DNA of 64,000 bases from positions 19,677,946 through 19,741,945 of the forward strand of contig NC_057749.1 of NCBI RefSeq assembly GCF_004010195.1, in the 5' to 3' direction. The position numbers and the translations under genes were made by a program. The stretch is from Chiloscyllium plagiosum (Eukaryota). Of the stretch, positions 1 to 57,881 are shown piece by piece; the stretch's first letter is position 1, and every line of letters starts with the position of its first letter. The notes under the pieces were generated by a model. The model made no database searches and had not been told where the DNA came from. It saw only the letters and a list, made by a program, of their open reading frames with translations.

Positions 1-176
1 CCCTCCTCTAGCTTATCTCTCCACGCTTCAGGCTCTCTGCCTTTATTCCTGATGAAGGGCTTTTGCCCGAAACGTCGATTTTGCCTGTCCTCGGATGCTG
101 CCTGAACTGCTGTGCTCTTCCAGCACCACTGATCCAGAATCTGGTTTCCAGCATCTGCAGTCATTGTTTTTACCTC
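1..176 (+). mobile_element. 3' end (pseudo-LTR) of a Penelope-like element, cut by the window edge
   Basis: Near-identical to 59695-59793 and to the reverse complement of about 58895-59035, both belonging to a GIY-YIG-encoding PLE fragment; ends in a ...ccagcatctgcagtc... tail. Confidence 0.8.
45..80 (+). ncRNA. Minimal type I hammerhead ribozyme motif (PLE type)
   Basis: CTGATGA (49-55), A, GGGC-TTTT-GCCC stem II (57-68), GAAA (69-72), CG, TC (75-76); palindromic ACGT mini-helix III; helix I is weak. Confidence 0.7.
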
Positions 177-13700: not shown

Positions 13701-16700
13701 ATTGCTGACAAGTGTGAAACTTTATTGCTGGAACAGCACAGCAGGTCAGGCAGCATCCAGGGAACAGGAGATTCGACGTTTCGGGCACAGGCCCTTCTGA
13801 AGAAGGGCCTGTGCCCGAAACGTCGAATCTCCTGTTCCCTGGATGCTGCCTGACCTGCTGTGCTGTTCCAGCAATAAAGTTTCAACTTTGATCTCCAGCA
13901 TCTGCAGACCTCACTTTCTCCATTGCTGACAAGGTCAATGTTTGTTCCCATTCCCAATTGCCTTTAACTGAGTGAAGTCAATTAAAAGTCAACCACATGA
14001 CTGTGAGTCTGGAGCCATGTGTAGGCTAGACTGGATAAGGATGGTAAATTCCCTTCTCTGATGATTTTTTGCATCAATCCGCAAACTAGCAATCTGGGCC
14101 TCTGGATTACTGGTCCTGTGTTATGAACATTACACCATTGTCTTCATATCATTGCATAATTAACATGATGGGGTAACACTAATGGACTTCATTTGACTCT
14201 GGGTTTCCTTAAGTAACACTTGTCCTGGATCCTGTGAAATTCCTGTGGGATGGGGACAGCTCTGCAATGCATGGGTGGGGATCTGGCTGCTGCTAGTTCC
14301 AGGAACAGCTGCCAGGACAGAGAACTCACAGTGACATCTTAAATATTTATCAGTGGTGTGGATAACAATTTCCATGCCTGCATCTACTAAATTATTTATA
14401 TCAAATTATTTTAGGTTTTATTTATTTTTTAATTAGCCTCTACTATGTTGCAAAAAGAGAAGGTCCTTTCTTTCCCTATCTTCAGTCCTTTAATGTAAGG
14501 CCTTGCTTTGGGCACAAAATAGGATCTTTAAGATTATGCCAGTATGCACATAATTTAATTGTGAATAACTCTCCTCCTGACTCACCAAAGCCTATCCACC
14601 ATCTACAAGGCAATATTCAAGTGCACATCCACTTCTCTGGATGTGTGCAGCTCCAACAACACTCAAGAAACTTGATACCATTTAGGACAAAGCAGTCCAC
14701 TTGATTGGCACCACATCCACAGACATTTAATCCCTCCAGCATCGACGTACAATAGCAGTGTGTACTGCCTACAAAATGCACAGTAGACATTCACCAAGGC
14801 TCCTTAGGCAGAACCTTGCAAACCCAAAATCACTATCACTTGGAAGGACGAGGACAGGCAGCAGATACAAAACAATACCACCATCTGCTGTTTCCCTCCA
14901 AATCACTCAGCATCTAGACTTGAAATTGCATCGCCAATCCTTCAGTATTGCTGGAACAAATTCCTGGAACACACTTCCTAATGACATTGTGGGTCTACCT
15001 GTAGCACATAGACTATAATGATTCAAGAGGAAGCTCACTACATCTTGTCAAGGGCAAAAAGGGATGGGCAATAAATTAAAAATAATCGAAATATACAACC
15101 AATGATTGTACATGCTTGGGACAGATAATTTGTAGAATGTGATGAATTGGAACGTGATCTTTACCATAATTTCCCGATCTCTATCTCCTACTGTTTCTCA
15201 ATCTCTGCACCTCTCTCTATTTCGTCTATCTCTTTTGACTCTTTTCCCTTCTCTGTTTCTATTTATGTTTCTCTTGTCCTCTCCCTCTTTCTCTACATCT
15301 CCTACCCTCAGCCTCTTCATCTCTCATGCCCACTCCCCTCTCCTTTTCAGTGCCTAGCTAATCACAAAGGATTGTAAGGCCTGGAGGAGTTTAGCAATAT
15401 GGAAGTGCCTTTAAGAACTGTGGAAGCAAGGATGATATGCATTTCTGGACCAGTGTAGGTCAGTAAGAACAGTGAGGAGGTCAAAGACAAAAAGGACTTC
15501 CTGCAAGTGAGGATATTGACAGTAGAGTTTTGAATGAATTGTTGACTAAAGAGATACTAAGTGGGAGGCCAACCTAGAATACATGAGAATAGTTGAATCT
15601 CAGAGGAAGAAAGGTATTAATGAGAATTTCAATAATGGATCAATGGAGGTAGTAGTAGAGGTCAAGGTATGTGGCACTGGGGAAGGACAGGATTTGGAAT
15701 TGCAAACACAGCTGATGGTGATATAGAAACCAAGTTGGAAATGGTTAAGCTTTAGGCAGATGGGAGAAGGATAGAGTTAACTGTCAAGGATTGAAGTTGT
15801 GTTAGGGACTTGTCAATATTATTGCTATTTACCATGGGAATTGCCAATATCAATTGGTGATGGAGTAATTATACTCTCCCACCAACAGAGGCAGCACAAC
15901 AGGAGGATGTAATTATATGGTCACAGATTTTTAAATTAAAATATGGGCAGAACAACATAAAATGGGAATATATTAAAATGTATGGCATTAAAATGTATGA
16001 TCAGTTACATTTGTACAGGTTGATTCAGGTGCTGTGTCTTCTCATCTCCATCTGATGGTTATATCTGAGCTCCTTGCTGAGATATTTGTATCATCGATAG
16101 CCATAGGTGAGATCTTGAAACCTGGAATTTGGCTAACATGGTTTCACTATTTAGGATAGTTGGTAAGGAAAAGCCAGGGAACTATAGATATTGGAGGGAA
16201 TCTTGAAGGACAGGATTTACATGTATTAGGATAAACAAAGGCTTATTCGGGATAGTCAGCATGGCTTTGTTCATTGGAAACTGTGTCTCACTAACTTGAT
16301 TTAGTTTTTTGAAGAAATAACAAAGAGGATTGATGAGGGTAGACTGGTGGACATGATCTATATGGATTTCAGTAAGACTTTCAACAAGGTTCCTCATGAG
16401 AGTCTGGTTAGCAAGGTTGGATCTCATGGAATACAGGGAGAACTAGCCATTTGGATACAGAACTGGCTAAAAGGTAGAAGAAACGTGTATTGAGTTTGCT
16501 TTTCAGACTGAAGGCCTGTGACCAGTGCACAAGGATCGTGCTAGGCCCACTGCTTTTCGTCATTTATATAAATGATTTGGATGGGAGCATAGGTGGTATG
16601 GTTGGTAACTTTACAGATGACACCAAAATTGGAGGTGTATTGGAGAGCGAGGAGTTCCACAGGATCTTGATGGGCTGAGGAGTGGCAGATGAAGTTTAAT

Positions 16701-19700
16701 TTAGATAAATGTGAGCTGCTATATTTTGGAAAGGCAAATCAGGGTAGGAAGTATATAGTTAATGGTGAGGTCCTGGGGAGTGTTGCTGAACAGAGACATT
16801 GGAGTGTAGGTGAAAGTGAGGACTGCAGATGCTGAAGATCAGAGTCGACAGTGTGGTGCTAGAAAAGCACAGCAGGTCAGGCAATATCCGAGGAACAGGA
16901 GAATTGATGTTTCGGACATAAGCCCTTCATCAGGCATGCCTGATGAAGGGCTTATGCCTGAAAAGTCGATTCCCCTGCTCCTCAGATACTGCCTGACCTG
17001 CTGTGCTTTTCCAACACCACATTCTTGACATTGGAATGTAGGTTCATAGTTCCTTGAAAGTGGAGTCGCAGGCAGATAGGATAGCAAAGAAAGCATTTAG
17101 TATGCTTTCCTTTATTGGTCAATGCATTAAGTGTAGGAGTTGGGAAGTCATTTTGCAGCTGTACAGGACATTGGCATACTCACACTTTTGGAACACTGTG
17201 TGCAATTCTGGTCTCGCTGCGATAGGAAGGGTATTGTGAAACTTGAAAGGGTTCAGAAAAGATTTAGAATTGGAGGGTTTGAGCTATAGGGAGAGGATGA
17301 ATAGGCTGGGGCTATTTTCCCTGGAGCATCGCAGGCTGAGAGGTGATCTTATAGATGTTTATAAAATCGTGAGGGGCATAGATAAGGTAAATAAACACAG
17401 TCTTTTCCCTGGGGTGGGGGAGTTCACAACCAGAGGGAATAGGTTTATGTTGAGAGGAGAAAGATTTAAAAGGCACCTAAGGGCAACCTTTTCACACAGA
17501 GGGCGGTGTATGTATGGAATGAGTTTCCAGAGGAAGTGGTACAACATTTAAAAGGCATCTGGATGGGTATATGAATAGGAAGGGTTTAGAGGGATAGGGG
17601 CCAAATGCTGGCAAATGGGACTAGATTAATTTAGGTTATATGGTCGGCATGGATGAGTTGGCCTGAGGGGTCTGTTGCTGTACTTACATCTCTGTCTCTA
17701 TGATTCCATCCTCTCCAGTGGTTAGCACTGCTGCCTCACAGCGCCAGAGACCCAGGTTCAATTCCCGCCTCAGGCGACTGACTCTGTGGAGTTTGCACGT
17801 TCTCCCCGTGTCTGCGTGGGTTTCCTCCGGGTGCTCCGGTTTCCTCCCACGTCCAAAGATGTGCAGGTCAGGTGAATTGGCCATGCTAAATTGCCTGTAG
17901 TGTTAGGTAAGGGGTAAATGTAGGGGTATGGGTGGGTTGCGCTTCGGCGGGTCGGTATGGACTTGTTGGGCCGAAGGGCCTGTTTCCACACTGTAAAGTA
18001 ATCTAATCTAATCTATAATCTAATCCATTATGTATTAGCCAAGCTAATATATCATCAGCAATGCTATAAGTTCTTATCTTCTGACACCTCACCACAACCC
18101 CGTTCCAACTCCAAATACAATCAGTTCTTCTGTAACATGATGGTTGTACTCTTTGCAACCCACTGTTATATGAAAATTGTGCTTTAGAAACATCACTTAA
18201 GGTGTTAGTGCTGTAATCGCGTTACAACCAACATACATTTTAAAACTTTGCACCATAGATACAGTGTCCTCAATTCATCAATCATGTTACAGCAAATTCA
18301 TGTTGACTAAATGCACATTCTAACAGGACGACACGGTGGCTCAGTGGTTAACACTGCTCCATCACAGCGCCAGGGACCTGGGTTCGATTCCAGTCTTGGG
18401 CAACTTTAAGTGGAGTTTGCACCTTCTCCCCGTGGGATTCCTCCCACAGTCCAAAGATGTGCAGGTTATATGAATTGGTCATGATAAATTGCCCATAGTG
18501 TTCAGGGTTAGGTGCATTCATCAGGGGTAAATATAGGATAATAAGATAGGGGAATGGGTCTGGTAGGGTTACTCTTCGGAGAGTCGGTGTGGACTTGTTG
18601 GGCCGTGGACCTGTTTCCACACTGCAGGGAATCTATGCTTCTATGACCTGTACACTACATCTGTTGGTTTCCATTTATTTACTCTGAGTGAAGAACTCAC
18701 TCCTCAGATCGGGCTGAGGCGTGAAATGTGGCCAGAAAGGGAAATGCGACACAAGTCTACAGCACACTGTGAAAAACTATCTGTTAAGCTCCACTCATTA
18801 GCTAATCTACTGTGCAGCTTTTGTGGATCTCTGAAACATCCTGCAGCTTAATGGAGCTCTGTTTATCTACAGACTTGTGTTGGTTGCCAGCCATCAAGTT
18901 ACATTTGGACTTTCATTTAACTTGACAATGAATCTTTTGTTCCACTGGCCCACAGGTGGGCATCAGGGAACCTCAAGTGGTGCAGAGTTTTAAGGTATTG
19001 TTTATTTTGAGTTGCTGCTGCAACCAACAGATCTTGATGTATTCCAGTATTCGTTTCATACAGCAATTAAAGTCAGACCAATCCAAACTCCCCCTTATGC
19101 TTAAGACTGGACAAACCAGCAAAAATAAGAAATAAAAACACAAAAGAAAGTCTTGCTTTTTAGAATGTCCCAAAGCTCCTCACAACCAATGAGATTTATT
19201 CTTTGAAGTGTGGTCACTGAGTTGTCAGAGTTGGGGAGAGTGTTTTTGACCCTTAGCTAGTGAGCAGTTTATACAGCTTGGTATAATGCAATTAATAATG
19301 CCAGTATTTCTCAATAGTGAGTGAAAGTTTTTGTGTTTTTTATTTGATTTGCAGATGATTGCCAGAGGAAAGAATGCTTCAGAACTCTTTCCTGCAGTGG
19401 TGAAGAATGTTGCCTGCAAAAACATTGAGGTAAGTGAAATTTCTCACTCCATTATGAGTGTGAAGGGATTTAGAGAATGAGCCTCCTAAAATCACCAGAG
19501 TGAACTACAGTAGCAGAGTGTTTTTCTCTTTTTTTTATGGAATGTGGGTGGCACTGGGAAGACTAGTATTTGTTGCCCATTCCTCATTGCCCTTTAACTG
19601 AGTAGGAGTCATCTTTTTATTTCCTCTTTTTATATCATCTATCCTTTACTGCTGCTGGATCAAAATCCCAGAACTCCCTCCTTAACGACATTTTATATCG

Positions 19701-25700: not shown

Positions 25701-28700
25701 TCGACTGTCTGCAGATGATTAGCTAGATGGATTAGCCATGGGAAATGTGAGGTTAGAGAGATAGGGTAGGAGTTGGGTCTGGGTGACATATGCTTCCTTC
25801 TTTTTCTTGACCAAACCCTCAATTTCTCTAGTCCTCCAGCATTCTCTACACCTACCAGCCTTGCCCTTCACCTGAACAGGAGCATGCAGTCTTTGAACTC
25901 TCGTTATCTTATTTTTCAAGGCTTCCCATTTTCCTGCCTTGCCTTTCCTTGCGAATATCCGCCACCGCCCACCAATTAACTTCTGAAAGTTCTTGCCTAA
26001 TACCATCAAAATTGGTCTTCCTCCAATTTAGAAATAACACTTTTAGGTCTGGTCTATCCTTTTCCATCACTATTTTAAAACTCGTAGAATTATTGTCACT
26101 AGCTCTAAAGTGCTCCCCAACTGACACATCAATCACCTACCTTGACTTATTTCCCAAGAGTAGGTCAAGGGTTGCAGGTACATCCGCATACAAAATCAAA
26201 AAATTTTCTTGTACACGCTTAACAAATTCCTCCCCATCTAAACCCTGAACACTATGGCAGTCGCAGTCTCTGTTTGGGAACTGAGATCTTCTTTCACATT
26301 TGTTTCTCAATTTCCTGCTGACCAATGAGGCGGGGGGGGGTCAATAGTACATTCCCAACAAGGTGATCATCTCTTCCTTATTTCTCAGAAATGCCATCTT
26401 TCAAAGGGAATAACAGTTCATACTCAATGAGAAATGGGTGCTGATCGGTTAGCAGTTCAACTCTGCATGGTTATAGCCTTGTCCTGAAAAATGTGCCAAG
26501 AGCAATTGTACTTATCTCATTTGTTTAATTCAAAAATGGCACAATATCCATGGATGTACCTTTTGACTGCAGACAACAGATTCCTGCATATGAGTATGTG
26601 TAGCTTCCAGCATGCATAAGTGAGCCACATTGTGAAATGGACTGATAATCTTAAATTGGTGGTAAGTGTAATTCTTAATACTCTGGATTGTTTTTCCTAC
26701 TTCTAGGACCCAAACCAGCTGATTCGAGCCAGTGCCCTCCGTGTCCTGTCCAGCATCCGTGTCACAATTATCGTCCCCATTATGATGCTGGCAATAAAAG
26801 AGGCTGCATCTGACATGTCACCTTATGTCAGGAAGACAGCTGCCCATGCCATTCCAAAACTCTACAGGTAAAACTTTCACATGATCCCTTGCATTGCCAG
26901 ACAGTGGGAACTCTTGGAAATTTTGTTGTGTCTTTTATTAATAGACATGAAAACATGTGAAAAATCTTAAATATTAGGGTTCTTGCAGACGCACTAGCAA
27001 CTGAGAGTAACTATGTTTTGGAGGAATGCCTTTTGTGTTGTATAATTTCTATGGTTCTGTGGAATGGGTGCCAATATAATTGCAAGAAAATGAGGACTGC
27101 AGATGCTGGAGATCAGAGTCAAAGAGTGTGGTGCTGGAAGAGCACAGCCGGTCAGACTGCATCCAAGGGGCAGAAGAGTCAATGTTTCGAGCATAAGCTC
27201 TTCATTATGCTCGAAACATCTACTCTCCTGCTCCTCAGATGCTGCCTGACTGGCTGTGCTTTCTCAGCACCATACTCTTCAACCCATTATAACTGCACTA
27301 ACCGAAGACTACAGTGAATGTTCAAAAACTTAAATTTCACCAAGAAGAAAATAACTTGCATGACAACACATAATCCAATTAAGAGTTATTAACACAACAG
27401 AGTGTAGTCACTCTGGAGAAGGATATTGACTCTTGAGTAAGCATTGCGTTGTCAATGTATTACCTGGTTTTCAGGTAAAGTGGCTTGAACCAATTATCTC
27501 CCTCGCCTATGGGGAAATTGCATACATCTCGCTTTGTCTTTATCAGTAGCCTGAAAAAAAACCTTTCTGTTTCAGCTTGCCCTGAATTTCACTGAGGAGG
27601 TGATGGCCTTGTGATATTATTGCTAGACTTTTAATCCAGGACCTGGGTTCGAATCCTGCCATAAAACATGGTGGAATTTGAATTCAATAAAAATCTGGAA
27701 TTAAGAGTCTCTGAATTTTCTGTTAATGTTCAAAGACTTACGTTTCACCAAGAAGAAAATAATTTACATGGCCACATTGTGGGGGTCTTTTGTGACCTCG
27801 GGATTTTCCAAAGTGCTTTATTGCCAACAAAATACTTTTGAAGTATTAACTCAATCTTAATGCAGGAAGCAGAATAAGTCAATTTATGTACAACAAGCTC
27901 CTCCAGACAGCGATGGGATAAATGATTTAGAAAGGACATTTTGAAGAATTCCATAGCGTAATGTATAATAAGGCTCACATGATATATTCCTAGTTACTAG
28001 GTTACTAGTAGTTACTAGGTGTTTTCATGCATAATTAACAAAATCAATAATCATTTTTAGAATGTTAAAAATCACACAACACCAGGTTATAGTCCAACAG
28101 GTTTAATTGGAAGCACTAGCTTTTGGAGCAACACTCCGAACCTGATGAAGGAACGGCGCTCTGAAAGCTAGTGCTTCCAATTAAATCTGTTGGACTATAA
28201 CCTGGTGTTGTGTGATTTTTAACTTTGTACACCCCAGTCCAACACCGACATCTCCAAATCATTTTTAGAATGAGCTAGATTAAATTTGTTGATATAATTT
28301 ACTGGTTTACCAATTATCAATTGGTAAATTACCAAAGTAATACTGTCACATCAGTAGAATGTGATATGAAATTGTGGGAAGATCTTCACTGTAAATACAT
28401 GGAAATCTGGGTGCAGTTCAGCATTTGTTAACACCTGTCAATGATTCAGGACCTTTCATTCCCATTGGTGAAGCTTGTTTGTTTGACTTAGGTAGTTCAG
28501 TGTTTTTTTTCCTTACTCTTTCATTGAATGTGGACAATAAAGGAAAGGCCAGCATTGTTCATTCCCAATTTACCTTGAATTGAATTGTTAGGCCATTTCA
28601 GAGGGGAGTGGAGAGTCGATTACTTTGCTGTGGGTCTGGAGTCATGTGTTGGCCAGACTTAGTAAAGAAAGCAGATTTCATTCCTCAAATGCCATTAGTG

Positions 28701-34700: not shown

Positions 34701-37700
34701 TGATGCAAAATACTTGTTTAATATCTCCCCATCTCCTGCGGTTCCACACGTAGGCTGCCTTGCTGATCGTTGAGGTACCCCATTCTCTCCCTAGATACCC
34801 TTTTGTCTTTAATGTATTTGTAAAATCACTTTGGATTCTCCTTAACCCTATTTGCCAAAGCTATTTCATGTCCCCTTGTTACCCTCCTGATTTCCTTCTT
34901 AAATATACTCCTACTGCCTTTATACTCTTATAAGGATTCACTCAATCTCTCCTGTCTATACCTGACAGATGCTTCCTTCTTTGATTTAACCAAAGCCTCG
35001 ATTTCTCTAGTCATCCAGCTTTCCCTACACATACCAGCCTTTCCTTTCACTTTAACAGGAATAAAGTGTTGCTGGAAAAGCGCAGCAGGTCAGGTAGCAT
35101 CCAAGGAGCAGGAGAATCGACGTTTCAGGCATAAGCCCTTCTTCAGCCCTTGAAGAAGGGCTTAAGCCCGAAACGTCGATTCTCCTGCTCCTTGGATGCT
35201 GCCTGACCTGCTGCGCTTTTCCAGCAACACATTTTTCAGCTCTGATCTCCAGCATCTGCAGTCCTCACTTTCTCCTAACAGGAATATACTGACTCTGGAC
35301 TCTTGTTACTTCATTTTTGAAGGCTTACCATTTTTCAGCCGTCCCTTTACCTGTGAACATCTGCCCCGGTCTGCATTTGAAAGCTCTTGCCCTCCAGAAC
35401 TAGAGGGCATAGGTCTAGGGTGAGAAGGGAAAGATATAAAAGAGACCTAAGGGGCAACTTTTTCACACAGAGGGTGGTTTGGGTATGGAATGAGCTGCCA
35501 GAGGATGTGGTGGAGGCTGGTACAATTGCAACATTTAAGAGGCATTTGGATGGGTATATGAATAGGAAGGGTTGGAGGGATATGGGCCAGGTGCTGGCAG
35601 ATGGGGCTAGATTGGGTTGAGATATCTGGTCAGCATGGACGGGTTGGACCAAAGGGTCTGTTTCCATGCTGTACATCTCTATGACTCTAATACAGTCAAA
35701 ATTGGCCTTCCACCTATTTAGAACTTAAATTTTACATCCGGTCTATACTTTTCATCACTATTATTAAAACTAATAGTATTATGGTTGTTCGCCCCAAAGT
35801 GCTCCCCCACTGACACCTCAGTCACTTGCCCTGCCTTATTTCCCAAGAGTAGGTCAAGTTTTGCACCTCCTGTAGTAGGTACATCCAAATACTGAATCAG
35901 AAAATTTTTCTTATGCACTCTTAACAAATTCCTCTCCCTCTAAACCCTTAACAATATGGCAGTCCCAGTCTATGTTTGGAAAGTCAAAGGTCTGTACCAT
36001 AACTACCGTATTATTCTTACAGATAACTGAAATCTCCTTACAAATTTGTTTCTCAATTTCCCACTGACTATTAGAGGGTTTATAATACAATCCCAATAAG
36101 GTGGTCATCCTTTTCTTATTTCTCAGTTCCACCCAAATAACTTCCCTGGATGTATTCCCAGATGTATGGGTGGCAGGGTGGCACAGTGGTTAGCACTGCT
36201 GCCTCACAGCGCCAGAGACCTGGGTTCAATTCCCACCTCAGGCGACTCTCTGTGTGGAGTTTGCACATTCTCCCCGTGACTGCGTGGGTTTCCTCCGGGT
36301 GCTCCGGTTTCCTCCCACAGTCCGAAAATGTGCAGGTCAGGTGGATTGGTCATGCTAAATTGCCCATAGTGTTAGGTGTAGGAGAATGGGTCTGGGTGGG
36401 TTGCACTTCAGCGAGTCGGTGTGGACTTGTTGGGCCGAAGGGCCTGTTTCCACACTGTAAGTAATCTAATCTAATATATCCTCCCTAAGTACAGAGGTAA
36501 TGCTCTCCCTTATCAAAAACATCACTGCCCCTTCTCCCTTTCTATCTTTCTTTTGCATTTGTATCCTGGAATATTAAGCTGCCAGTCCTGTCCATTCCTG
36601 AGCCATGTTTCTGTACTTGCTATGATATCCCAGTCCCATGTTCCTAACCATACTCAGAGTTTATCTGCTTTCCCTGTTAGGCCTCTTGCAATAAAGTAAA
36701 TGCAGTTTAATTTATCAGTCCTACCTTGTTCTCTGCTTTGTTGCTGCCTGCTCTGACTGTTTGACTTGCTCCTCTTCCCAACTATACCAGTCTCAGATTG
36801 ATGTCTTGCCTCATTATTTCCCTGCTCCCCCACCCCCCGCACCACCTTACTGGTTTAAATCCTCCCAAGCAGCTCTAGCAAATCTCCCTGCCCGTATATT
36901 AGTCCCCTTCCAAATCAGGTGTAATCCGTCTTTCTAGATACAGGTCACTTCTACCCCAGAAGAGATTCCAATGATCCAAAAATGTGAACCATTCTCCCCT
37001 GCACCAGCTCCTCAGCCATGCATTAATCTGCTCTATCCTCCTATTCCGACCCTCACTAGCTCATAGCACCAGGAGTAATACAGATATTACTACCGTCTAG
37101 GATCTCCTTTTTAAATTCCTGCCTAACTTTCTATATTCTCCCTTCAGAATCTCATTCTTTTCCTGTTTGTTTCACTGCAATAAAGTAAGCCACATGAAAT
37201 CACAGTGTTGGTGGGTGAGGAAAAGCACTTGGAAGACAGATGTAAGGAAACAGGATAAGCCAGTGAATTTTGTTGGAGTGGTAACGCAAAGCACAGTGGA
37301 GGCAAGAAAGTTGCAGCAGAATGTACAACCTGGTCGGAGGTTGGTTAAGCAGTAAGTGAATGATCTTCTTAAACCATTTATTTGCGAAGGTAAAGTTTAT
37401 TCACAGGCCAGGAGCAGCAGGTAAAGAGGTTACAATATTAAGAGATGTAGGATCCTCTCAATCTTTAATGTTGAAAGATGAGGAGCTATGTACCTCCAAA
37501 GGAGTATTGCCAGAAAAAATGCTAGTAACTGAAATTTATGGTGAGATAAGGAGTGCTCAGTTATGTAGAGTGAGTTTAGATTGTCCAGTGAAAAGTGGAA
37601 AAGTGCTGGTGGGGGACTGGAAAAACTCTCAGCTCCAGGAATACAATTTGTCCTCGTTAATGATATAGCTGGTGCACAGGAGGGAGTGCTGTCAACTATG

Positions 37701-43700: not shown

Positions 43701-46700
43701 TAATCAGAGGGAAATAGAGGAACAAATATGGAGCGAGATCTCAGATATATGTAAGAATAATAAGGTTTAATAGGTGATTTTAATTTTACAAATATTGACC
43801 GAGACTACCATAATGTTAAAGGTTTGGGTGGTGAAGAATTTAAGTGCATTCAGGAAAATTCCCTCTCAATATGTAAATGTTCCTACTAGAGAAGGAGAAA
43901 CATGTTACCTTTTCTTGGGTAATAAGATAGAGCACACACACATGCATGTATGCACGCACACCTCAGTGTATTGGGTGAATTTGCAGTTACAGATTTGTAT
44001 TTGAAGATACATTCTATTTTGTTCAACACTCACACAATCTGTAGACAGTCAATCCATGTAACATTATATAAATTCCTACTTTGGAAGTAGCACCAATCTG
44101 ACTCAAGTTTGGGATGCAGACAGACTCTAACCTCACACCTTTAATGCATAATCTGAGTGAGATATCACCCTTTTGTAAAATAAAACTTTAAATTATCTTG
44201 AGACTGTGACTGGAAAGAAGTTCCGGGATTTACATATTAATCAATCAAAATTTGCATCCCCATTCTAAGTGATTAAAGACTGAACAGCAATCTTGGTTCG
44301 TTCAATACATCGCATCAGTTGTATGACACTTTGATCTTTTACTATAAATTCTGTGTCCTATGATCCTGCCCAATAGCCACCTGACAAAGGAGCAGCACTC
44401 CGAAAGCTTGTACTTCTAAATATACCTAATGGACTATAACCTAGTATTGTGTGGTTTTTAGTTTTGTCCAGCCCAGTCCAACACTGACAGCTCCACGTCA
44501 ATAGGGGCACACTTTGGGTCTAATGATCGTAATTCTATTTGTTTTAAACTAGTTATGGAGAAGGACAAACCTTCTATAAAAAATTAAGTTTTAATTGGAG
44601 TAAGGCAAAATTAAATGATATGAGACAGCTTTCAAAAGTTGATTGGAGTAGACTGTTTGGAAGTAAAAGGACTTCTCACAAGTGGGAGGCATTCAAGAAT
44701 GTGACGATGAAAGTTCAGAGGCATTTTGATCCTGTTAGAGTGAAGAGTAAGGCTAGTAAGATTAAGGAACAATGGGTGAATAAAGATATTGAGGTTCTTG
44801 TTAAGAATAAAAGAGAATCTTACTTTAGATGTAGACAACGTGGTTCAATTGAATCTCTTAATCAATGTAAAGACTGTAGGGGCATTCTTAAAAGAGAAAT
44901 CAGGAAGGTAAAGAGGGGACATGAGATAACATTGGCAGATAAGGTTACGGATAATCCGAAGACATTCTGCAAATACATTAAGAGCAAGAGGGTAACTAGA
45001 GAGAGAGTAGGGCCTCTTAACAATCAAGGATGTCGTCTTTGTGTTGAACCCCAGGAGTTGGGTGAGATACTAAATGAATAGCTCACATCAGATTTTACTC
45101 TGTAGAAAGAAATGGAGTCTGGAGAATGCAGAAAAATAAACTTGGATGTTTTAAAAATAGTTCACATTATGGAAGAGTAAGTTTGGGAGGTCTTATAGAA
45201 TATAAAGGTGGATAAATCTCCAGGACCTGATCAATTAAGGACAAAGGGTAACTAGGGAGAGAATAGGGCCCCTCAAAGATCAGCAAGGCAGCTTTTGTGT
45301 AGAGCCGCAGGAGATGGAGCAGATACTAAATGAGTATTTTGCATCAGTATTTACTGTGGAAAAGGACATGGAAGATATAGAATGTAGGGAAATAGATGGT
45401 GACATCTTGAAAAATATCTATATTACAGAGGAGGAAGTGCTGGATGTCTTGAAATGCACATAAGTGGATAAATCCCCAGGATCTGATTAGGTGTACCCTA
45501 GAACTCTTTGGGAAGCTAGGGAAGTGATTGCTGGGCCCCTTACTGAGATATTTGTATCATTGGTAGTCACAGGTGAGGCACCAGAAGGCTGGAGGTTTGC
45601 TAACGTGGTGCCACTGTTTAAGAAGGGTGGTAAGGACAAGACAGGAAACTATAGACCAGTGAGCCTTACATCGGTGGTGGGCATGTTGTTGGAGGGAATC
45701 CTGAGGGACAGGATGTACATGTATTTGGAAAAGCAAGGATTGATTAGGGATAGTCAACATGGCTTTATGCGTGGGAAATCATGTTTCACAAACTTGACTG
45801 AATTTTTTGAAGGAGTAACAAAGAGGGCAGAGCGGTAGACGTGATCTATATGGACTTAGTAAGGCCTTCGACAAGGTTCCCCATGGGAGACTGGTGAGCA
45901 AGGTTAGATCTCATGGAATACAGAGAGAACTAGCCATTTGGATACAGAACTGGCTCGAAGGTAGAAGACAGAGGGTGGTGGTGGAGGGTTGTTTTTCAGA
46001 CTGGAGGCCTGTGACCAGTGGAGTACCACAAGGATCGGTGCTGGGTCCACTACTTTTCATCATTTATATAAATGATTTGGATGTGAGCATAAAAGGTACA
46101 GTTAGTAAGTTTGCTGATGACACCAAAATTGGAGGTGTCATGGACAGCAAAGAAAGTTACCTCCGATTACAACAGGATCTTGATCAGATGGGCCATTGGG
46201 CTGAGAAGTGGCATATGGAGTTTAATTCAGATAAATGTGAGGTGCTGCATTTTGGGAAAACCGATCTTAGCAGGAGTTATACACTTAATGGTAAGGTCTT
46301 AGGGAGTGTTGCTGAACAAAGAGTCCTTGGAGTGCAAGTTCATAGCTCCTTGAAAGTGGAGTCGCAGGTAGATACAATAGTGAAGAAGGCATTTGGTATG
46401 CTTTCCTTTATTGACCAGAGTATTGAGTACAGGAATTGGGAGGTCATGTTGCGGCTGTACAGGACATTGGTTAGGCCACTGTTGGAATATTGCATGCAGT
46501 TCTGGTCTCCTTCCTATGGGAAAGATGTTGTGAAACTTGAAAGGATTCAGAAAAGATTTACAAAGATGTTGCCAGGGTTGGAGGATTTAAGCTACAGGGA
46601 GAGGCTGAATAGGCTAGGGCTGTTTTCCATGGAGTGTTGGAGGATGAGGGGTGACCTCATAGAGGTTTATAAAATCATGAATGGCATGGATAGGATAAAT

Positions 46701-49700
46701 AGACAAAGTCTTTTCCCTAGGGTCGGGGAGTCCAGAACTAGAGGGCATTGGTGTAGGGTGAGAGGGGAAAGATATAAAAGAGACCTAAGAGGCAACGTTT
46801 TTATTCAGTAGGTTATACCAGTATGGAATGAGCTGCCAGAGGAAGTGGTGGAGGCTAGTACAATTGCAACATTTAAAAGGCATTTGGATGGGTATATGAA
46901 TAGGGAGGGTTTGGAGGGATATGGGCCGGGTGCTGGCAGGTGGGACTAGATTGGGTTGGGATATCTGGTCGGCATGGATGAGTTGGCCGAAGGGTCTGTT
47001 TCCATGCTGTACATCTCTATGACTCTATAACTCTAATGTATCCCAGAACATTGTGGGAAGTAAGAGAAGAAATTACGAGACCCCTTGCAGAAATAGTGGC
47101 ACCATCTATAACTACAGGTGAAGTGCCTGATGACTGGAGGGTGGCTAATGTTGTACCTTTGTTTTAAAAAGGTTGTGAGGAGAAACCGGGGACCTGTGAA
47201 ACTGACTTTGGTTGTGGGTAAAGTGTTGGAGGTGATTATAAAAGATAGGATTTATGGACATTTAGAGAGGCAAAAATTGATTAGGGATCGTCAGCATGGG
47301 TTTTACGTGAGGTAGAGTAATTAGTAAAGTTATGCCATATGGGTTTCAGGCTGAGCTTGATAATGGATGCCTGTGACCAGCAGTGTTCCACAGGTACAGG
47401 TTGTGGGTCCTCTTTTCATTGTCATTTTTATAATTGATTCGTATGAGAATTTTGAAGGCATGGTTAGTAAGTTTGCAAACGACACAAAAATTGATGGCAT
47501 TGTAGACAATGAAGAAGGTTTTCTAAGATTACAAAGGGATCTTGATCAAATAGATTAATGGGCTGAAAAATAGCAGATGGAGTTCAATCTGGATAAATGC
47601 AAGGTATTGCATTTTGGTACAATAAACAAGCATAGGGCTTACACAATTAATGGTAGGGTCTTGGGTAGTGTTATAGAACAAAGGGACCTAGAGTTGCATG
47701 TACATAATTCTTTTAACTTTGCATCACATATTTAGACAGGTTGGTTCAAAAGGTGGTTGGCACGCTTGCCTTCAATACTCAGTCCTTTGAGTATAGGAGT
47801 TGGGAAGTCATGTTAAGGTTGTACAGGACATTGGTGAGGCCTCTTCTAGAATACTGTGTCCAGATCTGGTCACCCAGTGATGAGAAGGATATTATCAAGT
47901 TGGAGAGGGTTCAGAAGAGATTTACTGGGATGTTGCCATGTATGGAAGGTTTGGGTTATAAAGAAAGGCTGGATACGCTGGGAGTTTTCTTAACTGGAGC
48001 GTAAGAAGTTGAGAAGCGATTTGATAGAAGTTTATAAAATAATGAGAGGTATAGACAGAGTTAATGGTACTTATTTTTTCCCTAGGATGGGGGATTTCAA
48101 GACCAGAGATACTTTTTTAAGGTGAGAGGCGAGAGATTTAAAAAAGACGTAAGAGGCACTTTTTTTACACAGAGGGTAGTTCACATGTGAAATGAACTTC
48201 CTGAGGAAATGGTGGATGTGGATACAATTACAACATTTAAAAGATACATTAATAGGAAAGTTTTGGAGGGATATGGACCAGGTGCAGATGGATGGGACTA
48301 GTTTAGTTTGGGGTCATGTTCGGCATGGACTGTTGGACTGAAGTGTCTGTTTCTATGCTGTGTGACTCTATGTAAAACAAGGAAAATGAGCTTGTAAAGC
48401 AAATTGAAATTGAAGCTATAATGTGTGTTTCACAGAGATGTGGCTACAAGGGTATCAGGGTGAGGAATTAAATATCCAAGGATATACATTCTATCAAAAG
48501 GAAGGCAGATGGGCAGAGGGGATGGAGTTGTCTTGTTAGTAAGAAATGAAATTAAATTGATAGCAAGAATGATACAGACTCAGAAGGCATAGAATCTGTG
48601 TGGGTAGAGTTGAGCTACCGCAGGGAAAAAAGGACGCTGATGGGAGTTCTGTTCAGGTCTCCTTACAGTAGTCAAGATGTGGGGCAGAAAATAAATCCGG
48701 AGATAGAAAAGGCATGTAATAAAGGCACTATTGTAATACTCATGTGAGACTTCAGTATGCAGGCGGACTGGGAAAATCAGGTTTGTAGCAGATCTTAAGA
48801 AAAGGAATTCATAGAATATCCATGAGATTTTCTTTGGAGCAGCTTGTGGTATAGCACGAGGGAACAGGCAATTCTCGATTTGGTGTTGTGTAATGAGGTA
48901 GACTTGATTATGGAGCTTAAGATGAAAGCATCCTTGGAGGGTAATGACCATAATATGATAGAATTTACCCTGCAGTTTGAGAGTGAGAAGCTGTTGTCAG
49001 ATGTAATGTTATTACAATTGAGTAAAGGTAACTCCAAAGACATGAGGGAAGAGCTGGCCAGAATTTGAAAGGGAGTCTAGCAGAGAAGACAGAGGAGCAG
49101 CAATGGAAGGAGATTCTGGGAGTAATTCAAGAGGCAAAACCAAAATGCATCTCTAGGAGGAAGAAGCATACTAAGGGGAGAATGAGGCAAAACTGGCTGA
49201 CAGGGGAAGTCTGGGGCAACATAGAAGCAAAAGAAAAAGCATACAATGTGGTGAAGATTAGAGGGAAGCCATAAGATTGGGAAGCCTTTAAAAGCCAGCA
49301 GAGGATAACTAAAAAAACAATAATGGGGGGAAAGATGAAATATGAAAGTAATATAAAGATAGCTAGTAATATAAAAGAAGATTGCAAGAGTTCTTTAGAT
49401 ATATAAAAGGTAAGAGTGGACATTGGAATATGAGGCTTGAGAAATAATATGGAGAACAAAGAGAGAGTGCTGGAATTGAATAGGTATTTTGCATCAGTTT
49501 TCATTTGGAATAGTGCAAGCAGTTTTGCTCCTTGTATCTAAAGAAGGATGTGCTTGTCTTGGAAGAGTCCAGAGGACGTTTACAAGTATGATTCTGGAGA
49601 TTAAGCTCTTGTCATAGAGGAGTGGTTGAGAACCCTGGGTCTGACCTTGTTGGAGTTTAGAAGGATGAGGGGAGAGTCTGCTTGAAAATTACAGAATACT

Positions 49701-52700: not shown

Positions 52701-55700
52701 TTGGGGAAGGAAACCTGCCATCTTTATCCAGCTGGGCCTCCATGTGATTCCAGACGCAGAGCAGTGTGGATGACTCATAACTGCCGTCTGAAATTGATGA
52801 GAAACCCACCCTGGTGATTGGGGATTGACAACCATTGCAGGTCTTGACAGAAATACTCATATGCCATAAAAGAATAAAACTTAAACTTAGCATGGGACTC
52901 ACAGAAATATTTATAAGGGAGTGAATCTTAAGAGTTAAACTCTTTTATAAAATTTAATACTGCATGCTTTCAATTAACATTTCAATTTAAATTTATTGTT
53001 TAAGTTTTAACTTTCTGTCCTGCTTGGGTAGGGCTAAACAATCTTTAAGGAAAAGTAGAGCAATAATCATGGAACATTTTAATCTAAATCTTAATATCTG
53101 TAAAATCAGATGGATAAAGGGAGCTTAGATCTGGGTTTCATAAAATATTTTCAAGACAGTTTCTTAGAACAGAATGTTTTTGAGCTGACCAGAGTGCAGG
53201 CTATGTCACTCCTTCTAGTGTGCAACAAAATAGCACAATTAATAATCTTGCAATGAAGAAGCCCTTAGGTAGCAACAATGATAATATTATTGAATTTTAT
53301 ATTCAATTTGGGGAGAGAGGAGTGTGGCCAAGACTGGTATTTTAAAACTTTAATAAGGGCAATATGAGAGCATGACACAGAGCTAGCAAAAGTGGACTGA
53401 CAAATCAGGTGAATGGATAGGTCAATGAAGATGAATTGGAAGACATTCAAGGGAATATTCCCAAATACACAGAATAGATACATTCAAATAATAAAGAAAA
53501 ATTCAGATGGAAACAACCATCATCACTGTTTAACTAAAGAAGCTAGAGATTTAATAAATCTTAAAAATAAGCATATTATTGACCAAAGATCACAGGCAGG
53601 ACAAAAGAGTGCACAGAATATCAAAAGCAGAAAAGATTGTCTAAAAGATGAATAAAATAGGAAGATTTAGAGTACAAGAGAAAGCTAGCTAAAAATATGA
53701 AAACAGATAGTGAGAGTTTCTTTTGATATTTAAGAAGGAAAAGAGGAAACAAAGTGAACATTAGTCCAATAGAAAGTAAGGCTGGACCATTAATAATGGA
53801 AAAGAAGAAAATGATAATTGAAAGGTAAAAGTTTTCAGGGCGGGAAATGGAGAAATGTTATGATTGTGCAGGAAGGATTACACTGGTACTGGAATCAAAA
53901 TACAAGACTCCACCAGTCACACCATTAGCAGAAATGTGTTGATTCAATCACCAAATGACCAATCACTTCTCTTTTGGACTATCATTCAGAATAGAAGAAG
54001 TGTCCACCAGGCTTCTTTAATGAACTCTAAATAATCTGTCTATTATAAACAAGGCTTAATCTTGAAGAACATGGTTAAAGCCTAGTTAAGCTATGATCCA
54101 AAATTAGACTATTTCCCCTCTGTCTCATGCAAAGAGACACCTAAACAGCATGAAAAGAAAGTCTCTGCAGAGGTTACGTTCTTTTAACTGAAAAGCAAGA
54201 GGGATAAAACAACTCCTGCAGGCCAAGGGTCTGGAATCAAAGGATAAAGTGTGATGACTTTGCATGTCCACTTTCTCCTGTCAACAAAGCTGAACTGCTG
54301 ACAGCTGTAGATTGATGATGGATGTCCAATTCTGATTCCAACCAATTTGGATTTGAGTCTCTGAGAATTGGTCACAGACCAATCCTTCAGGTGTTACCAG
54401 GTACACAGAAATACCGGCTGATAGGAACTTCTGTGTAGAACAGGATTCAGGAGAGAGTCCTATTGCTTCCTTACACAGATTTCTAAGTCTGAAGAATAGA
54501 ACTGTTCAGTCCAAAGAGGTTTGCTAGGCATTTAATAGTATAGGGGATCCTAATCCGATTTTTCAGTATTTAAAGCAATAAAGTCCATATTATATTAGTA
54601 TAGGGGCCTGTAATCCTCTTAAAGCCACCTTACCTCCTTTTGTTTAAGGCAGTTAATCGCATATCTTATCTCCTTGAAAACTTTCCTAAGCAGTAACTCT
54701 AAATTCACTTGATTTCATGTAAAAAGCAGTTAGTCCATAGCATACATTTAACTGCTGACCTAATTTCAAAGAAACCATCCTGCTTCAATCATGAAAATAT
54801 CTAATAGTTCAAATCTTCAAGAATTTTTCGAGAATACTCCTTAAATATAAACATGTATTTCCAATAGAAGGCATATCAACTGAGAGTCATGTTGAAATCA
54901 GTAATGTATTGATAGCAAACCAGCTAAAGGGAAAGCAGCTAATTAGGAAAATGAAGAAATAGTCACATCAGTTCACGTCAACAGTGCTTCCTACCTTCGC
55001 CTGCAGCCATCCTGGTCCAAATGTTGGCACCGTCAGGGTTCCCTTGCTCAAAGCTGATCTCTTCCTTTGTCTCCTTGGCCCTCAGGTGGTGATGGCTGTG
55101 GCACAACTTTATTTCCACCTTGCTCCCAAAGCAGAGGTTGGTGTGATAGCCAAGGCTCTCGTTCGCCTGCTACGCAGTCACAGGTAAGCAGTACATCTTC
55201 AGCAAATGCGTCTGAATTTCAATAGCTAGAGATGTCCATCACATCTGAAGAAGAAAAGAACTTCCTGATTTCTATTGAACCTGAGTGCTGTTGTCAATGA
55301 CCAGCTCTGATCTTGCAGGGTTCCTGCTCAACTTGCAGGGGGTTTTGAAATACCTGCCATTGGTGTTCTGCTTGCCAGAAGCACTATCAATCACACATGC
55401 AAAAAAGTATTCAGGGTTTCATTTGCAATGGGGAGGTTACGAGGCATTTCAGTCAGAGTGAGAAGTCATTATTTCGCCCACGTTGGGGCCATAAAGGATT
55501 TGTTTTTAGTTAAATACATAGTGCAGATTCGTGTTAAATTATTGGTAAGGTGAATCTGATTGGGGCTATGCAATATTTTTAGGCTCCCCAAGCTCCAAGG
55601 TAATTTTTAAAAAGTGCAAGAATTGAGCATATTCGTTTTGATCACAGAGTGTGGATCCCTGCATATATTCATCACTTCTAGCAAATGGAAATGAGCCATT

Positions 55701-57881
55701 TATAAGCTCATCTGCTTATGTTCCTTTAGTTGCTTGAAATAAGTCAAGTACAGACCATACTCAACTGGCCCACACTTGCAAAATCTGAAATACAGTGACT
55801 ACTGTTAGATGTCCAAAAATGTGCAGGTCAGGTGAATTGGCCATGCTAAATTGCCCGTAGTGTTAGGTGCAGGGGTAAATGTAGGGGAATGGGTCTGGGT
55901 AGGTTGCGCTTCGGCGGGTCGGTGTGGACTTGTTGGGCCGAAGGGCCTGTTTCCACACTAAGTAATCTAATCTAATCTAATGTGATTCTGTGATTGAGCA
56001 ACACTTGCTGGACAATACTGTATTGCTAATAGCTACTGTAATGATGAATTTAAGATATGGAGGGATCCGTTCTCTGCAAACAAAATGAAAGTATTCAAGA
56101 CTTGCATTGCATTTTGAAATACCCAAAAGCTTGAGAAGCATCATTGCTGAACCAATCAGAATCAATTTTGTCACCAGTCAGCACCATTTTCATCTGTAGT
56201 ACAAATTCCTACAATTCTTTGAAATTTGACATTCTAGTGTCTGTCCTAATGACTGCAAGATGAAAAATTTCAGAAATCGGTCTTTTTGGAGATAAATCTA
56301 ACAGTCTGTTTCAAAGAGCCTTTGAGTGATCATTGGTCTGCATCCTTATAGTCATGTCAACTTGATGTGCAGAAATAAGATGCTTATTCCCGTTCCATCC
56401 CTGCATTGTCCTGTCATACAATCACATATCTTCCTGACTTGGAACTATATTGCTGTTCCTTTACTGTCATTGAGTCAAAATCCTGCAACTTCCACCCTAA
56501 GAGTACTGTGCATGTATCTACAATGTATTAGCTGTAGCAGTTCAAGAGGCAGCTCACCATCGTCTTCTCAAGGGTAATTGGGAATAAGTGGCCAGGCTAG
56601 CGATGCCCAAATCCTATAAAAGAATAAATTAAAAAGGAATTAGCATGGCAGACAGCTATGTGCATGTTCTAATTTCCTAATTTGCCAGCTAAGTTTTTGG
56701 GAACTGGACAATGAATTGATCTTTTCAGATGGCTTTGATTTTGGGTTAACCACAACTTTGAAATTGCCCTATGACCAGACCAGTTAGTGATGGGGTCTCC
56801 TCAAGAGCTCAACAACAGCCATCACGAGAGCTCGGCATCAAGGAGTGTTCAGATGCATTGGTGTCTCCTCTGAGATGGTCTGAGATGAGCTGATGTACTG
56901 ATATTAATAAAAATGATCAGACTATATACTGATATTAATAAAAATGTCCAGACTTTGCTTTCTTCAGTTTAACTTCTCAAGACCTGTATTCTAGTCACCT
57001 ACTGTTGGGCTTTAGTCTTTTTCCTGAGATCCTGAGACAGATTGTCAATGCAAAGCTGAAAATGTATTGCTGGAAAAGCGCAGTAGGTCAGGCAGCATCC
57101 AAGGAACAGGAGAATCGATGTTTCGGGCATAAGCCCTTCTTCCTGAAGAAGGGCTTATGCCCGAAACGTCGATTCTCCTGCTCCTTGGATGCTGCCTGAC
57201 CTGCTGCGCTTTTCCAGCAACACATTTTCAGCTCTGATCTCCAGCATCTGCAGTCTTCATTTTCTCCTCGAAGATTGTCAATGCAAGTCATTTTTTGCTT
57301 ATTCTTCACCAGAGCCTTCCCATTAACTGAAACAGCTTGTTCAGCAATCATTCTTCCATTAAGCTTAAAGAGACACTTGCATTTATACAGTAACTTTTAC
57401 AACCTCAAGATGTCCTCAGGCCACCCACAGCCAATGAGATGCTTTTGAAATCTGAAAAATTCTGAAAATTAATAACCGTCTGATAAATGAAAATCCTCCG
57501 TCTCATTTTTGTCTTGAATAGGAAACCTTTATTTTGAAACTGTGCCCCCTTATTCTGGATTCCTCTTCTCAGCACCTATACTGTGAAGCCCCTCAGAATG
57601 TTACATGTTTTAATAAGATCACTTCTCATTCTAAAATCCAGTGATTGTTGAACATGGGATCTTTTATGTCTACCTGTGAGTACAAGTGGGGTATTGTTCT
57701 AGAGATGCTACCTACTGTGCCATGAGATCTTTGGATTTTAACATCTCCTCTGAAACTCTGCCTGTGTCCTTTAAATTGTGGTGTCTTCCTTTACAGTCAG
57801 TTTTCATTACCATAATAATTGAGCGAAGCTTGGGTGTGGTAAATGGGCTAGTTTAGCTGATTTAAGTGCAATGAATTATAG

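Follow-up and report, generated by a model that had tools for sequence, protein, structure and literature searches.

Palindromic mini-insertions with a minimal hammerhead motif in the shark Chiloscyllium plagiosum: probable products of a Penelope-like element

We analyzed a 64,000-nucleotide stretch of the genome of the shark Chiloscyllium plagiosum (assembly GCF_004010195.1, contig NC_057749.1, positions 19,677,946 to 19,741,945 of the forward strand), called the window hereafter, which contains five short palindromic elements of one family, each with a hammerhead-like motif. On the evidence of the sequences, the five elements are products of a Penelope-like element (PLE). Comparison with their relatives elsewhere in the genome showed that the palindrome arms stop where hammerhead helix I has its 5' edge, and not at the ribozyme cut site, and supported the view that the inverted arm is made anew at each integration. 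The full explanation that we favor, with a probability of roughly 60%, is that these elements are dead-on-arrival mini-insertions, made by the reverse transcriptase and GIY-YIG endonuclease of a PLE from a short RNA, and that two cDNAs together would give rise to the palindrome.

The five elements, named here after the positions first given to them (13713, 16812, 27085, 35064 and 57054), had been proposed from an inspection of the letters and their translated open reading frames (ORFs), which we refer to as the sequence-only reading. Their positions were borne out, with boundaries within a few nucleotides. In each copy, two arms of ~85 bp, one inverted and one direct, were verified to be reverse complements of one another, and in all five a tail of 36-40 bp (...GATCTCCAGCATCTGCAG...CTTTCTCC) was present on one arm only. 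When copy 57054 was used as a blastn query against the window, each of the five copies was matched on both strands. A 16-mer of the tail occurred six times in the window with at most 3 mismatches, compared with 0.77 expected, and the motif CUGANGA-N13-GAAAC occurred six times, compared with 0.10 expected, always within the palindrome family. On the tail-side arm, no intact CUGANGA was present in copies 27085 and 35064. The target duplications, as read from the sequence, were 13 bp for copy 13713, 15 bp with one mismatch for 16812, ~11 bp with two mismatches for 27085, 11 bp for 35064 and 15 bp for 57054; the range in the window is 11-15 bp rather than the 11-17 bp claimed before.

The source assembly of 3.56 Gb was searched with window copies, which gave 468, 331 and 5530 first-look candidates, and the best 40 of each search were scored. 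Upstream of those matches that covered the direct arm and tail only (97-98% identity), the DNA was of three kinds. Long copies had ~170 nt in common upstream of the core, simple 5'-truncated copies began at TCATTCC, and one long inverted structure (L033) had a sense copy that continued into a piece of an ORF. The best named homologue of this piece was an uncharacterized protein of Chiloscyllium punctatum, with 93% identity. The piece, of 100 aa, matched no Pfam family by itself; 46 aa of it aligned, at 63%, to a protein of 902 aa (residues 818-863), in which Pfam recognized RVT_1 at 394-575 and GIY-YIG at 806-886. Since the alignment falls within the GIY-YIG domain of a protein that also carries RVT_1, the parent is an endonuclease-bearing PLE.

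For a comparison of ends and junctions, copies were placed on a common ruler, for which the naturally occurring 3' end (304 bp) of one long copy in the genome (L032) served. On this ruler, q171 is the A of ATTCC, CUGAAGA occupies q175-181, the predicted ribozyme cut follows q202, the outer end of the tail-less arm (site 1) lies at ~q259-263, and the tail end (site 2) lies at ~q299-304. The set used for the 13713 subfamily was composed of copy 13713 and 39 other full-length matches (the best 40 of 331), which were 91-100% identical to the query, and the junction table held 44 copies of the 13713 type. Parsing failed for L016, L028 and L027_2565, and in the reading of duplications also for L072, whose left arm is rearranged. 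In all 39 parsed copies of the subfamily, the outer ends fell within 0-4 nt at site 1 and within 0-7 nt at site 2, and each of these copies had a target duplication of its own, of ~10-16 bp.

An unselected sample was drawn from 191 kb (the window and its flanks), with 26 family clusters that were not themselves search targets and that we classified ourselves. Ten of them were palindromes, nine of these with the stereotyped arms of ~85 nt. The remainder were seven simple short copies, two single long copies, one long inverted pair (counted as two clusters), one copy cut by the window edge, three fragments and one odd form. The tail was one-sided in 9 of the 11 unselected palindromes.

The duplications of the 13713 subfamily also had a preferred end. 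In 18 of the 39 copies, the duplication ended in GT directly at the inner start site of reverse transcription (RT), and it ended in T in all 20 copies without intervening bases; the sequence of the start site would continue ...GTTGAAAC. This suggests that the RNA pairs over 1-2 nt with the nicked target at this site or that certain targets are preferred.

The arm and tail of copy 13713 were also found in direct tandem arrays with units of ~194 bp, with no mismatch in 124 nt. One array (L104) had at least five units, with periods of 194 and 224 bp, and 4 of 5 units contained the arm and tail of copy 13713 with no mismatch, while L077 was a tandem 1.7-mer. A search for the multi-unit junction (tail, linker and core) gave 803 first-look candidates, and the best 40 of the 803, which were scored, were all 94-100% identical to the query. 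The source of the young 13713 subfamily is an ORF-less unit of ~194 nt and is retrozyme-like. A canonical retrozyme ribozyme, which is a type I hammerhead with contacts between loop 1 and loop 2, was not found in it; the motif is a minimal one. It has been argued in a preprint that animal retrozymes derive from the pseudo-long terminal repeats (pLTRs) of PLEs (Li, Clavereau & Pollet 2026, 10.64898/2026.07.22.740005). The proposal of a non-autonomous PLE or a retrozyme-like system was thus upheld on both counts, by the continuity with GIY-YIG upstream and by the ORF-less direct tandem units. Another locus (L105, G000:C19:4942200-4943000) carried a head-to-head insertion with a 14-bp duplication, in which each arm was longer than one 194-nt unit. 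Its center was located within the arm region (~q215-235) and not at q171, and a partial tail was found on one arm and none on the other.

Next, the origin of the inverted arm was considered. According to the sequence-only reading, this arm is regenerated at each insertion and not copied from a palindromic master. This could not be decided from the five window copies alone, because the identities between the two arms of a copy (100, 84, 83, 97 and 94%) overlapped with that between copies (85%); the arms of 35064 were no closer to one another than to those of 57054, and vice versa. The 40 copies of the 13713 subfamily were more informative. Their arms and tails were nearly identical in the first 21 copies aligned, and 22 of the 40 showed zero differences from copy 13713, whose own left and right arms are the same, in the 60 positions compared per arm. 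These 40 copies had 28 different center strings and 26 junction types, and the flanks of the 39 parsed copies were unrelated. A sublineage with two tail substitutions (six copies) had six different centers, some of them of types also found in the main lineage. The arm substitutions 27C>T and 37G>A, which define this sublineage, were present on both arms in 8 of 10 copy-sites, as was a private substitution of L054. Private substitutions confined to one arm were found 12 times on the right and 5 times on the left with L072 excluded, or ~10 and 3 times after the sublineage sites of L068 and the truncation indels of L076 were set aside; neither difference was significant. A palindromic master would transmit one-armed substitutions together with its center, and neither was seen; regeneration of the inverted arm at each integration is therefore supported.

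Older copies gave a similar result. In 31 mixed copies, the two arms of a copy diverged by 6.4%, compared with ~10% between copies, and minor states were shared by both arms 49 times, compared with 15.6 ± 3.2 after shuffling (maximum of 25 in 200 shuffles). No allele was specific to the left arm, and the largest difference in frequency between left and right was 0.19, so that the left arms do not form a clade of their own. In the oldest subfamily (20 copies), the concordance of the arms, 21 compared with 16.0 ± 2.7, was not significant. The variants of copy 13713 that had been called private proved to mark a whole subfamily, with 331 first-look candidates in the genome, 40 of which were scored.

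Contigs from three runs, labeled as three different organisms and of uncertain kind, matched the arms at ≥95% identity (13613-14020). They break at the center (13797) and at the ends of the element; the center is a branch point in these independent data. The family seems to be common to related species.

We then examined where the arms end. For the 13713 type, with 44 copies, the end of the longer arm was located at q163-177 in 40 and at q169-175 in 33; the breakpoints are clustered next to the hammerhead core. Relative to CUGANGA, these ends are 0-6 nt upstream, where helix I has its 5' edge and the initiator-like TCATTCC is found, and relative to the predicted cut they are 27-33 nt upstream. 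The cut itself was the inner end in 1 of the 31 mixed copies (L031_2794) and in none of the 44 subfamily copies, or ~1/75 overall, and the nearest other inner end was that of L076, at q194-197. Similar 5' ends were found outside the palindromes: seven simple non-palindromic copies, four of them with a readable duplication of their own, started at q165-182, and the tandem insertions L077 and L104 began at ATTCC (q171). Since the whole ribozyme is contained within the arms, the RNA was uncut when it was copied. The earlier claim that the copies fold back at or just 5' of the CUGANGA box held for the arm ends but failed for copy 27085, the center of which is deleted past the box. The further claim, that the ribozyme region defines where RT stops and turns back, does not stand as worded: the turn-back points cluster by the core, yet the cut site is hardly ever the breakpoint.

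The consensus of the initiator (Inr) is YYANWYY, and TCATTCC fits it. In rotifer pLTRs, TATA and Inr-like motifs have been described (Arkhipova et al., PMC3846280; this and the other papers cited by accession are represented here by part of their text). In the long copy, a TATA-like TTTTATC lies 32 nt upstream of q171; it was rejected as a pattern match only, which is absent from the 194-nt unit.

The motif has the hallmarks of minimal hammerheads, some of which were identified by eye: CUGANGA followed by GAAA, an extra nucleotide after A9, a G10.1-C11.1 pair, palindromic positions 15.2-16.2 and a short helix I. In the 13713 type, helix I has 4 bp (AUUC/GAAU); in the 57054 type, three of the four pairs are formed. 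Helix III is missing in cis, and an ACGU palindrome is found instead; because of this replacement, only a dimer could be active. Stem II is GGGC/GCCC in most subfamilies, with the six loops CUGU, AUGU, UUAU, UCAU, UUAA and UUUU, and one compensated pair, GAGC/GCUC, was found in copy 27085 and most of 20 relatives. These data agree with the earlier observation that the pairing of stem II is kept while its loop varies, with compensation in one subfamily. Outside of the compensated pair, the invariance of stem II is evidence neither way. No Rfam hammerhead model matched the window at its gathering score, and none matched at an E value of ≤10 on 56900-57400, 58700-59900 and two tandem loci. Rfam models of microRNA (miRNA) families matched the hairpin far below their gathering scores, which reflects its long stem only. 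For a transcript that runs through a palindromic copy, a perfect hairpin of 84 bp was predicted (-182 kcal/mol, z of -26), and in this predicted fold the ribozyme could not form in cis. Taken together, the sequence features indicate a hammerhead motif of the minimal PLE type and not a canonical one. The minimal hammerheads of PLEs described by Cervera & De la Pena (2014, PMC4209133) also include dual motifs on opposite strands, 100-700 bp apart.

We propose the following scheme for the formation of the palindrome. The template would be a short RNA with only the 3' ~130 nt of the unit, that is, the minimal hammerhead, a spacer of ~60 nt and two RT start sites ~38-40 nt apart. Its 5' end may be set by the initiator-like TCA(+1)TTCC, which would direct transcription. 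A dimeric PLE complex would nick both target strands; one strand would prime at the inner start site and yield the tail-less arm, and the other would prime at the outer site and yield the tailed arm, either on the same short RNA or on two RNAs. Both cDNAs would run off the 5' end of the RNA. The 3' end of one cDNA would then pair by 0-5 nt with the other, or jump onto it, and copy it, and this copying would both supply second-strand synthesis and create the palindrome. Either cDNA might be the invading one, which would produce mirror-image ("flip/flop") centers. Hammerhead cleavage would be unnecessary for any of these steps.

The junctions bear on this scheme. In the junction table, 37 of the 44 were filler-free, and 29-31 of those had a microhomology of 1-5 nt. 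Mirror-image junctions were found, such as CCCTTCT-GA-AGAAGGG and CCCTTCT-TC-AGAAGGG, or the loops CT/AG and GGAA/TTCC, and the longer arm was the tail-less one in 24 copies, the tail-side one in 19 and neither in 1 (P = 0.54). A fold-back could account for 20 of the 37 filler-free junctions, the two commonest types among them, only with a loop of ≤2 nt. Two copies (L010_2653 and L034) retained only the 11-14 nt of the inverted arm next to site 1. Finally, in L068 (G000:C25:43357009-43357343), the left arm had three states of sublineage b, whereas the right arm had a states in its inner part and b states in the tail; its arms come from two templates or from a recombinant. The two-cDNA scheme is favored because of these short loops, the chimera L068 and the remnants in L010_2653 and L034, together with the priming of a PLE on both strands in vitro.

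The competitor to be weighed most carefully is intramolecular self-priming, in which one cDNA from the outer site is extended off the end of the RNA, then folds back at its 3' end and copies the arm, and the endonuclease nicks the hairpin at the inner site on either strand. Such self-priming was already proposed for PLEs in 2013 (PMC3846280), on the grounds of palindromes where inverted pLTRs are joined. It gives the flip/flop centers and, by construction, the one-sided tail; the filler-free junctions, in which the shorter arm stops at a microhomology, and the near-equality of the two mirror-image forms are compatible with it, and the recurrent junction of the L059 type makes use of a built-in inverted repeat (TCTTC...GAAGA, loop of 9 nt). 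However, more than half of the filler-free junctions would need their loop of 0-2 nt to be closed by only 0-3 bp, and the arms of L068 derive from different sublineages. In addition, the remnants in L010_2653 and L034 keep the site 1 end without the inner end, which is the opposite of a fold-back at the center, and three simple copies with neither a tail nor an inverted arm (L004_2513, L008_1803 and L037_794) show that site 1 is a true start site. We therefore regard self-priming as possible but unlikely. A palindromic master, that is, a hairpin of ~210 nt transcribed and copied faithfully like a short interspersed element, with centers that differ through instability of the tip (slippage or center-break deletion), would account for the near-constant outer ends and for the several junction types present in 2-7 copies each. 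Each junction in the young family can be represented as a microhomology deletion across the tip of a perfect palindrome of greater length, the instability of palindrome tips is well established, and a few nucleotides of another copy's center were found in L061 and L066. New substitutions should then be one-armed, but those of the sublineage and of L054 were mostly or wholly two-armed; the same junctions recurred in two sublineages, identical arms and tails were found in non-palindromic tandem arrays (with the 803 multi-unit candidates), the simple copies had the same 5' ends, the predicted 84-bp hairpin RNA would bury the partner strand of the start sites, and an undeleted long center was seen in none of the 44 copies. 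This makes a palindromic master very improbable.

Still less weight can be given to a retrozyme route, in which the self-cleavage of tandem transcripts by the hammerhead gives unit-length linear or circular RNA, whose ends or fold set the stop of the cDNA. The motif with all four hallmarks of minimal PLE hammerheads (PMC4209133), including the 4-bp helix I of the 13713 type, together with the compensated pair in stem II between subfamilies, the ~194-bp arrays and the cluster of breakpoints that abuts the 5' edge of helix I would suit this route. It is largely contradicted by the positions of the breakpoints, since the predicted cut is almost never an inner end and the arms hold the whole, uncut ribozyme. 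Moreover, no Rfam hammerhead model was matched, and in the anole PLE, insertion by ribozyme mutants is normal, and the cut site is not the end of any read (PMC11167929). A miniature inverted-repeat transposable element (MITE) moved by a DNA transposase was suggested by the short, palindromic, duplication-flanked form and by the subthreshold miRNA-type hairpin matches to Rfam. We give this reading practically no credence: it is refuted by the long duplications of variable size (10-16 bp) and by the PLE parent, the termini are asymmetric because of the one-sided tail, a series of 5' truncations and tandem forms is continuous with an element carrying GIY-YIG and reverse transcriptase, and left arms are not clustered apart from right arms.

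Several observations weigh against the two-cDNA scheme itself or against the data behind it. If start sites were chosen freely, one-sided tails in 9 of 11 unselected palindromes would be surprising (P = 0.03); the scheme needs an extra rule, with one protomer or start site per strand, whereas such tails follow directly from a hairpin that is nicked. Two templates are indicated by one chimeric copy only, L068, and later gene conversion could have produced it as well. Fold-backs of the target in L077 and L035 indicate that intramolecular self-priming occurs in this system. The 5' ends were scattered over ~7 nt and had another cluster at q163, a looser pattern than one start site of transcription should give, and a strong RT stop would give the same pattern of 5' ends. 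The recurrent junctions (in 7, 5 and 3 copies) could be partly due to inheritance. The 40 copies are the best matches to one query and are non-random, three rows of the junction table were corrected by eye, and the differences among centers rest on one assembly, with the contigs of three other runs as the only outside support.

The two fold-backs were as follows. In L077 (G000:C17:70727037-70727813, ~355-413), 15 nt of the upstream target were repeated as a reverse complement at the 5' junction, before ATTCC, which corresponds to a fold-back of the target strand with a stem of 15 bp and the loop AACAC. In L035, a palindrome (CTTGTT/AACAAG) was located just upstream of a simple copy.

A more speculative idea, for which the odds are in our opinion low, is that the minimal hammerhead is kept as a pairing module and not as a cutter. 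Its ACGU helix III would join two template RNAs head-to-head in the dimeric PLE complex, both strands would prime, and a palindrome would result; hairpin RNAs of 84 bp could then feed the silencing of their own family, as a built-in brake.

Family members in the window. Positions are those of the window; RT start site 1 is the inner start site.
Feature	Position	Strand	Remarks
Copy 13713, left target-site duplication	13700..13712		CATTGCTGACAAG; repeated on the right at 13921-13933
Copy 13713, tail-less inverted arm	13715..13796	-	Outer end lies at RT start site 1
Copy 13713, sense arm with minimal hammerhead motif	13797..13884	+	CUGAAGA 13797-13803, GAAAC 13817-13821, predicted cut after GUC at 13824
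Copy 13713, one-sided tail of ~37 bp	13885..13921	+	Between the two RT start sites
Copy 16812	16808..17026	-	Older palindromic insertion; perfect palindromic center CAGGCATGCCTG; CUGAUGA core 16909-16933 (minus); 15-bp duplication
Copy 27085	27085..27283	-	Old subfamily; compensated stem II (GAGC/GCUC); center deletion extends past the CUGANGA box on one arm
Copy 35064	35058..35276	+	Palindromic insertion; 4-nt filler at center; intact core on inverted arm only (35122-35146, minus)
Copy 57054	57051..57272	+	Palindromic; center CCCTTCTTC-CT-GAAGAAGGG; 15-bp duplication; core 57143-57167; predicted cut after 57170; site 1 at ~57229; tail to 57272
Related longer copy, other subfamily	1..176	+	Truncated by the window start; visible part not palindromic; core 49-73; tail present
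Long head-to-head inverted pair, related subfamily	58917..59793		Arms of ~360 nt, 93-95% complementary, 179 nt between them

In the long inverted pair, neither arm had a tail, and the core of the right arm was removed by an 18-nt deletion between CCTGA/CCCGA repeats. The ORF at 59264-59704 matched no Pfam family. Elsewhere in the window, an open frame of 330 aa (45819-46811, plus strand) matched Pfam RVT_1 with an E value of 2.9e-22. No palindromic copy adjoins it, and it probably represents a piece of some other retroelement.

How PLEs integrate is still an open question, including why inverted copies with a one-sided tail arise and how the second strand is made, and the published in vitro work, as far as represented here, ends at first-strand priming on both strands. 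The value of the family lies in its being a high-copy natural record of PLE integration. Because the mini-insertions in the shark genome are very numerous, young and almost identical, each of their junctions can be resolved at the level of single nucleotides, and the data place the template's 5' end at the edge of the hammerhead. The two-cDNA model and the model with a single hairpin differ in predictions that can be counted: the sizes of loops, the flip/flop ratio, two-sided tails and chimeric arms. Perfect palindromes of 170 bp occur about once per 13 kb (five in the 64-kb window), which is relevant to genome assembly and to hairpin-derived small RNAs, and they are easily mis-annotated as MITEs or, given the subthreshold Rfam matches, as miRNA-like hairpins. 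The architecture of an inverted copy with a tail, and self-priming at the junction, have already been published. In full-text searches of the literature, we found no description of the stereotyped palindromic mini-form or of hammerhead elements in sharks; in the whale-shark genome paper, Penelope is merely listed among repeat classes.

Compared with known systems, the family resembles MITEs in size, terminal inverted symmetry and flanking duplications, and it differs from them in its variable duplications, one-sided tail, retroelement parent and regenerated centers. In twin priming of L1, the second target strand also primes, and the segment that is inverted originates farther 5' in the same RNA and is not duplicated. 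Priming of RT by the second strand, which gives an inverted 5' part, is the point of likeness; in the shark family, however, both arms copy the same ~85 nt. Non-LTR (non-long terminal repeat) retrozymes of animals (Cervera & de la Pena 2020, PMC7229834; 10.64898/2026.07.22.740005) are likewise ORF-less tandem repeats, of 150-450 bp, with duplications of >4 bp and solo "monomer" derivatives, as in the shark family. Their hammerhead is of type I, canonical and with loop-loop contacts, whereas that of the shark is of the minimal PLE type, and the commonest shark product, the palindromic solo form, is absent from the available text of both sources. The minimal hammerheads of PLEs (PMC4209133) share with the shark motif the CUGANGA and GAAA boxes, the ACGU palindrome in place of helix III, the short helix I, the unpaired nucleotide between A9 and 10.1 and the G10.1-C11.1 pair. 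The shark motif differs from them in a stem II of 4 bp instead of 6-8 bp and in opposed motifs only 20-40 bp apart, which would be locked in the 84-bp hairpin of a through-transcript, and it was not matched by the Rfam models.

The closest likeness in architecture is to PLEs themselves. In the text available from Arkhipova et al. (2013, PMC3846280), Craig et al. (2021, PMC8557442) and Frangieh et al. (2024, PMC11167929), flip/flop statistics and the symmetry of new substitutions on two arms were not found; the following parts of the architecture have counterparts. An inverted 5'-truncated copy lies head-to-head with a direct copy, with an extension of 30-40 bp at one end (PMC8557442 and PMC3846280) and target duplications of variable size. 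In the anole, both target strands are cleaved and extended, and RT begins internally, at a pair of neighboring sites between which the tail lies (PMC11167929); in the shark family, two sharp start sites also bound the tail, and the hammerhead motif lies ~60-100 nt upstream. A palindromic or microhomology junction, for which self-priming was proposed, is also shared. The shark elements differ in that their truncation is extreme and stereotyped, with arms of ~85 bp that end a few nucleotides from the 5' edge of the hammerhead, and in that this mini-form dominates (9 of the 26 unselected clusters, compared with two single long copies and one long inverted pair). Unlike that of other PLE insertions, the source of the young shark subfamily is an ORF-less tandem unit of ~194 nt and not a full element.

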